In this document: positions 3-10,995 of the stretch, piece by piece
Numbering within the stretch: the first letter of the stretch is position 1
How the letters are laid out: each line of letters begins with the position of its first letter
IMG/VR virus record: IMGVR_UViG_3300044546_001014
Direction: 5' to 3' (one strand)
DNA length: 17,070 nt
Source of the DNA: a virus
Notes under the pieces: generated by a model
Told to the model about the DNA's origin: nothing
What the model saw: only the letters and a program-made list of their open reading frames with translations
The model's database searches: none
Made by a program: the position numbers and the translations under genes

Positions 3-1193
3 TATCGCTACAGGATTTATCCTACCCTGCAACAAGAACAACAGATGACGTCTGTGGGTGGTGCAGTTCGATTCCTATACAACCACTTTCTCAAGGTAAA
101 CATAGATCAATACAACCAAGACAAAACATTTGTGTGGCAGTTTGACATGTGCAAACAGTTCACATCACTCAAGACCCAACACACTTGGTTGAAAGACACC
201 TACAGTCAGGTGTTGCAGAGCAGCATCAAGGACCTAGATCAAGCACTCAAGAACATCAAGAAAACCGGTGCTGGGTTCCCCAAGTTCAAGAGCAAGTACA
301 CTACGCCAATAAGTTTCAGATATCAACAACATACATCAATTAGCACTGATGGCAAATATGCCCATCTACCAAAAATAGGTGCTATCAGAATCAAGCTGCA
401 CAGATCACTGCCCAGCAAATATACCGGTTGCACAATCACACAAACACCACGTGGTTGGTATGCAAGTTTTGTGGTTGATGTGGCAGAACTGCCATTGGTA
501 GATCAAGTGCAGAACCCAGTGGGAGTGGATGTCAACAGCCAATACACAGCATTATCAACTGGTGACCTGATTGCCAATCCACGACCACTCAAACAAAAAC
601 AAGTGAAAATTAAGTCACTACAACGCAAACTTGCCAAGAAACAAAAGGCAAGCAAGAACAGAACCAAAGCAAAATTAAAACTGGCACGAACTCATGATCT
701 GGTTCGTTGCCAAAGATTAAACCATATACACCAAATCAGTGCGAGAATAGCCAAATCGCATGACCTGGTGTCAGTTGAAACACTGAAAATTGAAGAGATG
801 AGGAAGAAGAGCAAGCTAGCAGCCAAAGCTATTGCGGATGCAGGATGGGCCATGTTGGCTAACGCAATCGCCTACAAATTCCAACTAGCTGGTCATCACT
901 TCACCAATATAAATCAGTGGCTACTCAGTAGCAAGACATGCAGCTCATGTGGTACCAAGAAATCATCACTGGATTTGAAGCAACGAGAATATCATTGTGA
1001 ATCTTGTGGTGTTACACAGCATCGCGACATCAATGCAGCAGTGAATATCAAGAACTGGGGACTCCAACAATGGAACATAGATCATGCAAGGCAGGAACTG
1101 CCTCAAGCGCCTGTGGATGTGACTTGGGATATAATGGACAATTGGGGCCATGTATCTCAGTCACAATTGAAGCAGGAAGTCACTGCCCTTTAG
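3..1193 (+). CDS. tnpB: IS200/IS605-family TnpB (OrfB), an RNA-guided RuvC-like nuclease; the N-terminus is cut by the window edge
   Basis: The reading frame is open from nt 3 (YRYRIYPTLQQEQQ precedes the listed Met, matching the TnpB N-terminal 'KAYKYRIYPT..EQ' block). The RuvC-I motif is GVDVN; the RuvC-II Glu lies in VSVETLKIEEM. The zinc finger is CSSCG...CESCG and the RuvC-III motif is HRDINAAVNI. A Lys/Arg-rich linker is typical of the family. Confidence 0.9.
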   Translation, partial: YRYRIYPTLQQEQQMTSVGGAVRFLYNHFLKVNIDQYNQDKTFVWQFDMCKQFTSLKTQHTWLKDTYSQVLQSSIKDLDQALKNIKKTGAGFPKFKSKYTTPISFRYQQHTSISTDGKYAHLPKIGAIRIKLHRSLPSKYTGCTITQTPRGWYASFVVDVAELPLVDQVQNPVGVDVNSQYTALSTGDLIANPRPLKQKQVKIKSLQRKLAKKQKASKNRTKAKLKLARTHDLVRCQRLNHIHQISARIAKSHDLVSVETLKIEEMRKKSKLAAKAIADAGWAMLANAIAYKFQLAGHHFTNINQWLLSSKTCSSCGTKKSSLDLKQREYHCESCGVTQHRDINAAVNIKNWGLQQWNIDHARQELPQAPVDVTWDIMDNWGHVSQSQLKQEVTAL

Positions 1194-8692: not shown

Positions 8693-8804
8693 AGCTGTTG
8701 TTCTCCTCTGTTTTGAATCAGCTTATGTCATCAATATAGCATCTGACTCTGATCAGTCAATGGGATTTTTTGCCAAAATAACTGATTAAACCCCTAATTG
8801 ATTG

Positions 8805-8832
8805 TTGACATTTTTGCGCCTGGTGCTATTAT
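8805..8832 (+). promoter_or_regulatory. sigma70-type promoter (TTGACA-N16-TATTAT) predicted to give a leaderless mRNA starting at the ATG at 8840
   Basis: A consensus -35 TTGACA (8805-8810) and a -10 TATTAT (8827-8832) lie in the divergent intergenic region. The ATG at 8840 sits 7-8 nt downstream of the -10 box with no room for an SD. Confidence 0.5.
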
Positions 8833-8839
8833 CAGGTTT

Positions 8840-9265
8840 ATGAAAAAGAATTCACCCGTTTACGCATATGTTTTGATGAGAAATGATCTGGCCAGCCTGG
8901 GCGCAGGCAAGGCAGCAGCACATGCTCATCATGCAGGAACAAGAATGACCTACCATGTACGCAAGCATGGCACCAGGGCACAAAAAGATGTGCTCAACAC
9001 CTGGGAACAGGAATGTGAGGGTGTGGGCACCACCATCGTGTTGAGTTGCGATGAAGAAACCATGAAGTGGTGTGTGGCAGAAATTGAAAAACTGCGAGAT
9101 CAGGGTTGCAGTGCAGGTGTGTGGCGTGACCCCACCTATCCCAGCACCACAGAGCGTGGGTTCTGTTTGATGGCAGTGGACGTGTGTGCCTGGGTTCTGG
9201 GCAGCAAGGACGATCTTTCACCTATCCTCAGCGACCTGCCTCTCATGAACAATTGTGCATGGTAA
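8840..9265 (+). CDS. PTH2-family peptidyl-tRNA hydrolase-like protein
   Basis: VYAYVLMRNDLASLGAGKAAAHAHHAG resembles the PTH2 N-terminal block (vvR.DL.mg.GKiaAQ..HA). The start is placed at Met-15 of the listed ORF because the 8798 ATG lies inside the predicted promoter. Confidence 0.45.
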   Translation: MKKNSPVYAYVLMRNDLASLGAGKAAAHAHHAGTRMTYHVRKHGTRAQKDVLNTWEQECEGVGTTIVLSCDEETMKWCVAEIEKLRDQGCSAGVWRDPTYPSTTERGFCLMAVDVCAWVLGSKDDLSPILSDLPLMNNCAW

Positions 9266-9597: not shown

Positions 9598-9617
9598 GGT
9601 CTCTGCTTCCAGAGACC
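9598..9617. terminator. hairpin between convergent genes (possible bidirectional terminator)
   Basis: An 8-bp stem (ggtctctg / cagagacc) has loop cttc. The flanking U tracts are weak. Confidence 0.3.
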
Positions 9618-9707
9618 CGCCGAATTACCGCTATCTTACAGCATCATAACTTGTGAACTGTTTGTTATTCACCAGCTATTATTAGCATGGGCATCGCACA
9701 TTGTCAA

Positions 9708-10215: not shown

Positions 10216-10473
10216 TTAGCACCAATTCAAATCAAAATATGTTTTGTATGCTTTGTCACAAAAATACACTGTGAGCAAAGTTTTTTTCTGATCACTGCTC
10301 CAATGCTGCCAACTGAGTTGGCCCATATGTTCCAGACACCATTTGATGATCAGTTGACTGCGTTCCTGATCCAGGTTGTGCAATTCAGTTTTGTAGGGCC
10401 AGTGCTTTGCCATGGGTTTGTATTTAAGATCTACTCTGCTAGGTATTGTGGATCCCACTGCAATACAAACCAT
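10216..10473 (-). pseudogene. downstream half of a possibly frameshifted gene (it overlaps 10431..10660 by 43 nt in the -1 frame)
   Basis: Two same-strand ORFs overlap by 43 nt. The downstream one has no RBS, and there is no obvious slippery heptamer. Confidence 0.3.
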
Positions 10474-10660
10474 ACAAAAAGTTCATGAGTTCTAAAGATC
10501 AATGCCATATTCAAGGGATCAATATCCCAATCATCTGCGTCAAAATTATCCTTGCACCATTCTATTTGGTCCTTGACCAAATGTGGTAATTTGTCCTTGT
10601 GACCAAAATTGACTATATCTATAGTGCGTAATTTATAGCTGGGATAGGGAACTGCTGTCA
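10431..10660 (-). CDS. hypothetical protein; the upstream half of the overlapping ORF pair
   Basis: The first ATG is at 10660; the listed start at 10670 is a TTG. Confidence 0.35.
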
Positions 10661-10722
10661 TCTTGTCCAAGAATGCGGCAAGAATTGTTGCAGAGTCAAT
10701 TTGTAGGAGATTATGGAAATTT

Positions 10723-10847
10723 TGGTAGGCCCCCTCCGGTTCGAACGGAGATATGCTCGCTTATAGTTTGGGGATTGAGGAGTTGAACCTCATTGTGTAA
10801 CCTACATCCCCCGAGGCGAGTTCATTCACCAATTATGATAGAGGCCC
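10723..10847 (-). tRNA. tRNA-like cloverleaf with canonical acceptor, D and T arms and an encoded CCA, but a ~65-nt anticodon-arm region in place of 17 nt (a tRNA with an insertion, or a tRNA-derived structured RNA)
   Basis: Minus-strand reading: acceptor gggcctc/ggggcct (5 Watson-Crick + 2 G-U pairs); T8 A9; D stem tcat/atga with D loop aattggtga (A14, G18G19, A21). The anticodon stem is ctcgc/gcgag and the loop begins c-U33-CGG-G37, followed by a ~48-nt insertion. The insertion contains a second canonical T-arm (tgagg TTCAACT cctca) closed by ggggat/atcccc. The variable loop is catat, the T arm is ctccg TTCGAAC cggag, the discriminator is A, and CCA is encoded. Confidence 0.5.
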
Positions 10848-10995
10848 TTACCAACTGTTCATATATTATGTGCTAGATATGGGTTTGTCAACACATAATA
10901 TATAAATAAAGATGGTAATCCTGTTGCTACGAACAACAGGAAACCCGGCTTGGAGCCCCAGGCTGTCCCACACATATATTTACTTGGAGATTCCT

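Follow-up and report, generated by a model that had tools for sequence, protein, structure and literature searches.

What does a tRNA gene encode when its anticodon stem encloses 55 nt? The question is raised by the minus strand of a viral contig, IMG/VR record IMGVR_UViG_3300044546_001014, whose entire 17,070 nt we refer to as the window. From 10847 to 10723 this strand reads GGGCCTC TA TCAT AATTGGTGA ATGA A CTCGC (55 nt) GCGAG CATAT CTCCG TTCGAAC CGGAG GGGGCCT A CCA. Every cloverleaf element listed by an earlier, sequence-only reading of the locus is present: a 7-bp acceptor stem (GGGCCTC/GGGGCCT, two G·U pairs included), T8, a D arm (TCAT-AATTGGTGA-ATGA) with its GG, a 5-bp anticodon stem (CTCGC/GCGAG) around exactly 55 nt, the variable loop CATAT, a T arm of the TTCRA type (CTCCG-TTCGAAC-CGGAG), discriminator A and an encoded CCA.

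Among the tRNA searches which that reading had proposed, one found the gene and another did not. ARAGORN with the intron option (-i), at default stringency, reported a single gene in the window, c[10723,10847], made of a 77-nt cloverleaf with a 48-nt insert in the anticodon loop, and labelled it tRNA-Pro(cgg), i(38,48). Rfam covariance models gave no tRNA match for this copy, either at gathering thresholds on the window or at E ≤ 10 on 10600–10960, and ARAGORN in default mode returned zero tRNAs across the window; both miss the gene because of the insert. The same 125 nt were found, identical, in six other metagenomic contigs (L001–L004, L010 and L011; numbers from L001 to L196 denote other contigs and phage genomes retrieved for comparison with the window). 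The window contig itself was found again in several metagenomes and in one metagenome-assembled genome, with an identical tRNA region. These identical copies, together with the diverged insert-bearing homologues and the compensatory helix changes described below, argue from sequence that the interrupted tRNA is a real feature, beyond chance.

To compare homologous loci, we fetched syntenic contigs with the neighbouring 164-aa MCD-like protein as a handle (53–90% protein identity). The slot upstream of the MCD-like gene, which in L019 comes directly after the TilS gene, always held a tRNA with the loop CTCATAA, and this same slot was found both with and without the insert. The tRNA(CAU) was intronless in L012 (Rfam, 46.5 bits), L019, L022, L027 (Rfam, 47.9 bits) and L028, and interrupted in the window, L010 and L011 (these three being identical), L014, L013, L016 and L017. 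L022 and L027 carry intronless versions of the window tRNA body. Furthermore, a 21-mer from the window D arm occurs in three further tRNA-carrying viral contigs (two distinct tRNAs), all of them tRNA(CAT) with CTCATAA.

The most informative relative was L014, whose exons are identical to those of the window at 74 of 77 positions. It reads CTCCGAAGAT... at the place where the window reads CTCGGGGGAT..., with CCG instead of CGG at the supposed anticodon, and its insert helix is GAAGAT/ATCTTC in place of GGGGAT/ATCCCC. The CGG and CCG triplets covary with their helix partners between the two genes and are therefore intron bases, not an anticodon. Consequently, the loop C-U33-CGG-G37 proposed by the sequence-only reading does not hold, all the intronless relatives being CAU, and neither does its placement of the insert at the canonical position 37/38. 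The single split that gives the same mature loop in the window and in L014 is CTC/.../ATAA, restoring CUCAUAA, so that the insert lies between nt 34 and 35, inside the anticodon. Excision of 10765–10812 left a 77-nt cloverleaf with the loop CTCATAA, called tRNA(cat) by ARAGORN, in agreement with the earlier view of a genuine tRNA gene with an intron-like insert. As for codon use in the window, CCG accounts for 6 of 168 Pro codons (it is the rarest of them) and ATA for 35 of 250 Ile codons. On the strength of these sequence comparisons, the window gene is a tRNA(CAU) split between C34 and A35 by a 48-nt intron.

Initiator tRNAs are marked by a 1:72 mismatch and by three G–C pairs in the anticodon stem. 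As read from the sequence, the window tRNA lacks these hallmarks, having G1·U72 and an anticodon stem, CUCGC/GCGAG, without three G–C pairs. Because a gene for a mini-TilS is linked to it, the tRNA is probably an AUA-reading, lysidine-dependent tRNA-Ile2. The TilS gene accompanies the tRNA(CAU) slot across the clade, at only 23 nt from the tRNA in L019; the window and L014 encode the same intact protein, and the window enzyme has homologues (43–44% identity) in phages of 635 and 642 kb and in PA5oct-like jumbo phages. This linkage makes the mini-TilS the likely C34-modifying enzyme of the window tRNA. In E. coli, the TilS determinants that separate tRNA-Ile2 from elongator tRNA-Met are C4–G69 and C5–G68. 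Both pairs are present in the window tRNA, although the E. coli determinants may not apply to the phage enzyme.

The insert turned out to belong to a family, of which we recognized seven variants of 47–51 nt; the six tRNA genes that hold them represent three anticodons, CAU (two bodies), UAA (one) and Arg-UCU (two bodies). One lineage, hereafter lineage B (L013, L016 and L017), has a different tRNA(CAU) body and a 51-nt insert, CTCA/G GGTTC ... GAACC AAAAT/TAA (slashes mark the splice sites); up to the splice site, its exon 1 agrees with tRNA-Met genes annotated in T4-like phages. IMG/VR searches with profiles of the MCD-like and TilS proteins yielded three more members. L064 is a tRNA(UAA) with a 50-nt insert, and L180–L184 and L196 represent two different tRNA-Arg bodies with inserts of 47 and 48 nt, CTTC/C GGTCCC ... 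GGGACC GCTCC (or GTCCC)/TAA. Removing the latter inserts restores the loop CTTCTAA, so these are Arg-UCU tRNAs, misnamed Arg(cct) and Gly(tcc) by ARAGORN. With its intron option, the program gave wrong anticodons for the genes of the window, L014, L180 and L196; of the four intron types, three were misnamed. Exact excision of the insert leaves a canonical 7-nt loop in each of the seven variants, the same as in intronless homologues.

All the inserts follow one plan: a single nucleotide, a helix (P1) of 5–6 bp, two nucleotides, an invariant AGG(G)U, a linker, a T-arm-like hairpin, the return strand of P1 and a 5-nt tail. The AGG(G)T lies two nucleotides past P1 in seven variants out of seven, and the tail never departs from 5 nt. 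The return strand of P1 abuts the hairpin directly, with the exception of L064, which has one extra A. In all variants the hairpin has a G–C closing pair and a U-N-C-R-A-N-U loop, that is, the invariants of the tRNA T arm (the invariants of the window hairpin are also kept in L014, L013/16, L064, L180 and L196). The first nucleotide of the intron faces the first of the tail as C–G in three lineages and as a purine–purine mismatch in the rest, and in L014, lineage B and L064 the linker, which is variable, is able to fold into a small hairpin, P2. In the window copy, the T-arm-like hairpin that had been noticed earlier is confirmed by the fold, GGGGAT/ATCCCC closing TGAGG-TTCAACT-CCTCA. The predicted structure is a seven-position acceptor-like stem (one G·A and six Watson–Crick pairs) stacked on a 5-bp T stem, with a 4-nt 3′ overhang. 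In its dimensions the modelled insert equals the acceptor/T-arm half of a mature tRNA, and it represents a minimal mimic of a tRNA "top half". Independent minimum free energy (MFE) folds of the family members showed the same topology.

In an alignment of the seven variants fitted to the structure model, 90% of the cells were paired, versus 29–52% when the partners were slid, and all six P1 pairs differ on both sides across the family. Two covariance models built on the family recovered its members at 68–82 bits (the window copy at 80.7 with R1 and 73.6 with R2) and L064 at 18.8 bits with filters off; applied to about 1.8 Mb of related loci, R1 and R2 found no members beyond those that ARAGORN had shown. 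The Rfam tRNA model spans the intron-bearing lineage-B gene of L016 (3749–3873) at 46.5 bits (gathering threshold 29), taking the intron as an insertion, and misses the window and L014 copies. Since the insert structure is kept by covariation in several different tRNAs, we found no support for the earlier suggestion of two fused tRNA 3′ halves or an attP-type fragment. The features of the locus are collected in Table 1.

Table 1. Coordinates in the window of the interrupted tRNA gene, its parts and two associated features.
Feature	Position	Strand	Basis
Whole interrupted tRNA gene, 125 nt (77-nt tRNA with CCA plus 48-nt insert)	10723..10847	-	ARAGORN -i
Exon 1, 35 nt: acceptor 5′ strand, D arm, CTCGC, C32 U33 C34	10813..10847	-	Intronless homologues with CTCATAA (L022, L027, L023/24, L026)
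Intron GGGGGATGTAGGTTACACAATGAGGTTCAACTCCTCAATCCCCAAACT, 48 nt, between C34 and A35	10765..10812	-	Comparison, excision, covariance models
First intron nt G (opposite A10769) and P1 5′ strand GGGGAT	10806..10812	-	MFE fold, covariation
Junction GTAGGTTACACAA with invariant AGGU (D-loop-like GG)	10793..10805	-	Family alignments
T-arm-like hairpin TGAGG-TTCAACT-CCTCA; equivalents of G53-C61, U54, C56, R57 and A58 kept	10776..10792	-	Folds, alignments
P1 3′ strand ATCCCC and 5-nt single-stranded tail AAACT ending at 3′ splice site	10765..10775	-	Folds, alignments
Exon 2, 42 nt: A35 U36 A37 A38, anticodon-stem 3′ strand, variable loop, T arm, acceptor 3′ strand, A73, CCA	10723..10764	-	
Sigma-70-like promoter TTGACA-N17-TAATAT, ~16 nt upstream of tRNA +1	10863..10891	-	Consensus match, 10/12
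Mini-TilS, 200 aa, catalytic N-domain of tRNA-Ile lysidine synthetase	14335..14937	-	TIGR02432, 122.5 bits vs cut-off 93.6

The splice position within the tRNA is 34/35 in the window and L014, 35/36 in lineage B and probably 35/36 in the Arg genes. Relative to P1, however, the positions are constant, one nucleotide before and five after, and no base is conserved at the splice sites (the last nucleotide of exon 1 is C, A or U, the first of the intron G, C or A, and the last of the intron U, G or C), implying that the sites are specified by the structure of the intron. Both are found at one end of a single helix, staggered by 4 nt. Because the 5′ site abuts P1 and the 3′ site falls within an 8–9-nt single strand, a bulge–helix–bulge (BHB; a 4-bp helix with two 3-nt bulges) cannot be drawn.

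Comparison of exons, introns and flanks pointed to selection on the tRNA. Between the window and L014, identity is 96% in the exons, 69% in the intron and 61–62% in the flanks; between L013 and L016 the corresponding values are 96, 98 and 59–65%. Such conservation of the exons over the flanks indicates, as far as sequences can tell, that the tRNAs are still under selection, which would require removal of the insert. The Arg genes of L180 and L196 are 62% identical in the exons and 80% in the intron (flanks were not compared), which suggests either movement of the intron from gene to gene or a constraint on the intron itself. A small open reading frame (ORF) of about 75–79 aa immediately downstream of the tRNA (window 10431–10670, minus strand) is 89% identical to its L014 counterpart, versus about 62% for the farther flanks; it had no family match.

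The closest parallels in the literature are the "enigmatic" introns that Devoto et al. (2019, PMC6784885) described in tRNAs of the Lak megaphages; one of these introns may be a tRNA gene in its own right. A 2026 survey repeats the report of enigmatic tRNA introns for alternative-code jumbo phages (PMC13037316). Our literature searches found no paper proposing a mechanism for such introns. Like the window insert, Lak introns are short, non-group-I insertions in the anticodon loop of very large phages, negative in Rfam and polymorphic for presence among strains. When we folded four published examples (79–114 nt), each gave a 5′ hairpin of 4–6 bp, an A-rich linker and a nested tRNA-like body, with a T arm (TTCGAAT) against the 3′ strand and a 2–3-nt tail; an acceptor-like helix with a T arm butted on its 3′ strand, near the 3′ splice site, is thus common to both. 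The differences are equally clear. The window family is smaller, consists of the top half only and begins directly at the helix; it ends in a 5-nt tail and interrupts the anticodon triplet, whereas Lak introns have the separate 5′ hairpin and A-rich linker, a fuller body, an end 2–3 nt past the helix, and a tRNAscan placement at 36/37 or 37/38 (PMC6784885). The hosts also differ, Lak phages infecting gut Prevotella and the window family being found in aquatic phages, and no sequence similarity was found between the two groups. By these comparisons, the window insert can be placed among the megaphage tRNA introns, themselves poorly understood, as a compact variant whose boundaries and fold are backed by unusually clean comparisons.

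Taken together, the data lead us to favor, with fair though not full confidence, a large-phage tRNA(CAU), most likely a TilS-modified tRNA-Ile2, which is split between C34 and A35 by a structured family intron and from whose transcript the intron would be removed and the halves joined into a working tRNA. For recognition by RNase P and other elbow-binding enzymes, an acceptor-like stem stacked on a T arm is enough when joined by a reduced D-loop GG, even if the anticodon arm is missing, and this architecture marks cleavage sites elsewhere. The insert could accordingly be excised by the enzymes that process tRNA ends, drawn by its mimicry of such an end. The 5′ cut would be made by RNase P, the 5′ splice site coinciding exactly with the position at which this enzyme cleaves a 7 + 5-bp minihelix, and the AGGU plus T loop would recreate the tRNA elbow bound by RNase P and other tRNA enzymes. 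The 3′ site is where an NCCA end would finish, and a 3′ endonuclease would have to cut four nucleotides past the stem. Since RNase Z would cut three nucleotides early, another 3′ endonuclease would be needed, the candidates being trailer cleavage of the RNase E type, an "after-CCA" mode, and an enzyme dedicated to the task. The resulting 3′-OH/5′-P nick in the anticodon loop of the folded tRNA, a substrate of the T4 Rnl1 type, would be sealed by an Rnl-type RNA ligase. A simpler scheme, plain RNase P plus RNase Z excision in the MFE register, was discarded: on a Pro reading it leaves a 12-nt loop, and on the CAU reading RNase Z acts three nucleotides early.

Each half of this scheme has precedents. 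The same acceptor/T-arm architecture is found in RNase P minihelix substrates, the tmRNA domain, plant mitochondrial t-elements and mitochondrial tRNA punctuation, but those signals separate transcripts or form RNA ends, while the window insert interrupts an anticodon; we know of no such tRNA-like signal inside an anticodon that would require re-ligation of the flanks. In phage T4, Pnkp and Rnl1 seal the anticodon-loop nick made by PrrC. The proposed joining likewise has phage enzymes sealing an anticodon-loop break in a folded tRNA, and related end-healing domains occur in the window clade. T4 repair, however, mends damage, whereas the process envisaged here would splice a gene-encoded insert, and a ligase gene was not found in the fragments examined.

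Several observations weigh against this explanation. Splicing, meaning both excision and ligation, is a conclusion that we infer from sequence and structure rather than from transcripts. No gene for an RNA ligase, RNase P or splicing endonuclease was seen in the available phage fragments, which do not amount to a full genome. RNase Z would act after the discriminator, three nucleotides short of the observed 3′ boundary, and the tails are not CCA. The helix stack of lineage B is one pair shorter with unchanged offsets from P1, a poor fit to a ruler measured from the T loop. The Lak introns have 26–30 extra nucleotides before their tRNA-like part, so that RNase P alone cannot define their 5′ splice site. 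As to the fold, P2 cannot form in the window copy, unlike in three other lineages, the z-scores of the isolated introns are modest (−1.1 to −2.1), and the pair counts come from an alignment fitted to the structure model on a small sample of seven variants.

A variant of this explanation, differing in its enzymology, takes the insert as a true intron cut by a dedicated protein endonuclease of phage or host, which would recognize the minihelix and leave a 2′,3′-cyclic phosphate and a 5′-OH, to be healed and sealed by Pnkp/Rnl-like or RtcB-like enzymes. We consider this a possible alternative, though a rather unlikely one. The splice sites follow P1 at its outer end, also in the lineage whose stack is shorter by one base pair, RNase P alone cannot explain the Lak introns, and domains of the RNA end-healing type occur near the region: HAD_SAK_2 at 1245–1742 of the window (minus strand), and an AAA_33/Zeta-type kinase and a PTP-SAK phosphatase in L020 (3637–4338 and 9385–9948). 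On the other hand, no candidate endonuclease or ligase was identified, and the healing domains may simply counter host anticodon nucleases.

It is improbable, in our judgment, that the insert is never removed, the tRNA having been inactivated by a small mobile tRNA-like insertion or the 125-nt product acting as a decoy for host anticodon nucleases, TilS, synthetases or processing enzymes. Splicing is without evidence of its own, known bacterial machinery for such introns is lacking, and decay of tRNAs does occur here, the window strain having also lost half of a neighbouring suppressor tRNA. Moreover, the window copy has no P2, and a minihelix shape would bind tRNA-handling proteins. However, in two lineages the exons remain 96% identical amid flanks of about 60%, precise removal gives a canonical loop in seven variants out of seven, and no target-site duplication is present; an intact TilS is kept beside the tRNA, and the same element sits in six otherwise intact tRNA genes.

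Self-processing is less probable still. Group I introns interrupt the anticodon loops of cyanobacterial tRNA-Leu(UAA) and Azoarcus tRNA-Ile(CAU). Such introns have also been reported in tRNA anticodon loops of bacteria that include Patescibacteria (PMC13011429). They resemble the window case in splitting tRNA genes of the bacterial domain in the anticodon loop, CAU and UAA included. They measure, however, about 200 nt or more and have a P1–P9 core, a U·G at the 5′ site and a terminal G; at 48 nt, unmatched in Rfam at E ≤ 10 and with unconserved splice-site bases, the insert is indeed too small for group I, as first thought. It could instead be a new tiny self-splicing or self-cleaving RNA, with the halves joined by RtcB or by the RNA itself, an idea suggested by the conserved fold, the invariant AGG(G)U, the T-loop module (a common docking motif of ribozymes) and a size close to that of hammerhead, pistol and twister. 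We hold it to be very unlikely: no Rfam family was matched even at E ≤ 10, the splice sites have no conserved nucleotide, the group I hallmarks are absent, and one 48-nt fold would have to make two cleavages. In particular, for small self-cleaving ribozymes (hammerhead, twister, pistol, hatchet, HDV-like), the Rfam scan of 10600–10960 returned only chance microRNA and snoRNA matches (E > 2), and a hammerhead core was excluded both by eye and by Rfam.

Finally, a tRNA-Pro(CGG) with an archaeal/eukaryal-type intron at or near 37/38, removed by a BHB-recognizing or mature-domain-measuring endonuclease, has on its side the ARAGORN -i label and a G37 that suits tRNA-Pro, but it is scarcely tenable given that the near-identical L014 orthologue reads CCG in bases that pair within P1, every relative of the tRNA body is CAU, ARAGORN gets the Arg(UCU) members wrong as well, the window ORFs hardly use CCG, no BHB can be drawn, and the context is a tailed phage with sigma-70-like promoters. 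The archaeal and eukaryal BHB introns (cut by EndA/Sen endonucleases, joined by RtcB or Trl1 ligases) do share with the window intron a small size, a location in the anticodon loop and structure-defined sites, and removal of the window intron is likely to be protein-dependent as well; they differ from it in the BHB itself, in their 37/38 position, as opposed to 34/35 or 35/36, and in context, ours being that of a bacterial virus.

Attempts to find further members by sequence met with little success. Exact-pattern scans of IMG/VR (intron core, 3′ exon, lineage-B intron) returned nothing, a 20-mer of the 5′ exon had two unrelated chance matches in JGI metagenomes, and the D-arm 21-mer had none in GTDB genomes. 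The 16-mer CCGGTCCCNNAGGTAG gave mostly chance matches and, for the rest, only the Arg-type copies already known. Loci reached through a protein resembling the Major Vault Protein, or MVP (L006, L007, L033 and L034), had no tRNA; the tRNA clusters of the 635- and 642-kb phages (L031 and L032) had no intron of the minihelix kind; and blastn of three family members against GenBank phages matched exons and T arms only, with no similarity for the inserts. Three ARAGORN -i candidates (L055, L092 and L113) were judged spurious or unclear. The last, at L113 677–784, is a tRNA with a 32-nt insert that contains TAAGGTACC and departs from the family plan. A miniature element of the IS200/IS605 type, considered in view of the TnpB gene of the window, was rejected: transposon-like ends are missing from the insert, whose two ends covary as the strands of an RNA helix.

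The window itself is, on sequence grounds, a fragment of a large or huge phage, neither cellular nor archaeal. A 1307-aa ORF matches tail-fibre and tail-spike PHROGs (E down to 1e-172). An 856-aa protein (11805–14375, minus strand) carries an MVP shoulder together with Vault_3 domains; homologues at 59% are encoded by IMG/VR contigs, and those at 37% occur only in 735-kb, 462-kb and related huge phage genomes. An early idea of a giant-virus origin, prompted by the MVP, collagen and PTH2 domains (the PTH2-like peptidyl-tRNA hydrolase is at 8798–9265), was overturned by the tail-fibre PHROGs and the huge-phage homologues. Shine–Dalgarno motifs are weak or absent upstream of most window ORFs, contrary to the initial description of the genome as using them. 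At the edge of the window (45–1193, plus strand) is a TnpB/OrfB_IS605 gene with a Cas12f-like TNB domain.

Around the tRNA, L012 has a promoter-like TTGACA-N17-TATATT at the place equivalent to the TTGACA-N17-TAATAT of the window. The HNH homing endonuclease (10912–11484, plus strand; phrog_655, E 1e-42), which had been described as lying directly downstream of the tRNA, is encoded on the opposite strand and divergent from it, and is missing in relatives with the same intron. In L014 only a 245-nt gap is present there; the gene has therefore been inserted, in a strain-specific manner and with no tie to the intron, between the tRNA and the MVP-like gene. The space separating the divergent HNH and tRNA genes holds a long inverted repeat rich in A+T, TATATTATGTG...CACATAATATA (10856–10908), which overlaps the promoter-like site and gave only chance microRNA-like matches in Rfam. 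A conserved module adjoins the tRNA(CAU) slot, comprising saccharopine dehydrogenase, an R2K-type ATP-grasp and the mini-TilS (window 14335–14937, the mini-TilS, 15169–15906 and 16173–16994, all on the minus strand; L180 2775–5609); the ATP-grasp has a Pfam match in L180, and the window ORF at the same position has none. The same slot also holds tRNA(CAU) genes with a long, class-II-like variable arm (85–88 nt; L012 877–963, L019 7955–8040, L028 666–750 and L196 5643–5730), an arm unusual for a Met/Ile-type anticodon.

Beside the MCD-like gene, an amber-suppressor tRNA(CTA) is found in several relatives (L010 1643–1718, L013 4313–4385, L014 5049–5124, L016 4940–5015, L019 11008–11082 and L180 7466–7539). 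Of this suppressor, conserved in the clade, the window retains only the 5′ half (9611–9645, minus strand): homology with L010 ends after nt 35, also inside the anticodon, and about 348 nt of unrelated sequence stand in place of the 3′ half and a 191-aa gene. In L019 the release-factor ORFs are split (1628–2305, PCRF/RF-1). The tRNA(CTA) and the split release factor of L019 suggest that the clade may recode TAG; for the window, the truncated suppressor and the fact that TAG ends 4 of 19 ORFs speak against it.

To our knowledge, bacteria and their viruses are thought to splice tRNAs only by means of self-splicing group I introns. The locus described here offers a minimal, well-bounded version of the puzzle that the short megaphage tRNA introns have posed since 2019, with only 48 nt, unambiguous boundaries, a covariation-backed fold and a geometry pointing to RNase P, a 3′ endonuclease and an RNA ligase. 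More tentatively, these inserts might represent a distinct class of tRNA introns in large aquatic phages, a 47–51-nt top-half mimic excised in bacteria by an undescribed route (the tRNA end-processing nucleases of the cell, with RNase P at the 5′ site, or a dedicated minihelix endonuclease, plus a ligase) and amounting to a third kind of tRNA splicing, next to group I self-splicing and the BHB/endonuclease kind. Such introns may control whether phage tRNAs are active, or protect the anticodons of these tRNAs against anticodon nucleases of the host. Genes of this minihelix-intron family will be missed or mislabelled by annotation pipelines. If the intron is not removed, the locus would represent a tRNA-like RNA of a new kind, with a disabled tRNA as its base. 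If it is removed, a protein- or RNase P-dependent route of tRNA splicing would exist in the bacterial world, tRNAs that annotation tools miss or misname would be explained, and the finding would bear on the ways in which phages control their decoding apparatus or keep it safe, the apparatus in this case being an AUA-reading tRNA with its TilS.

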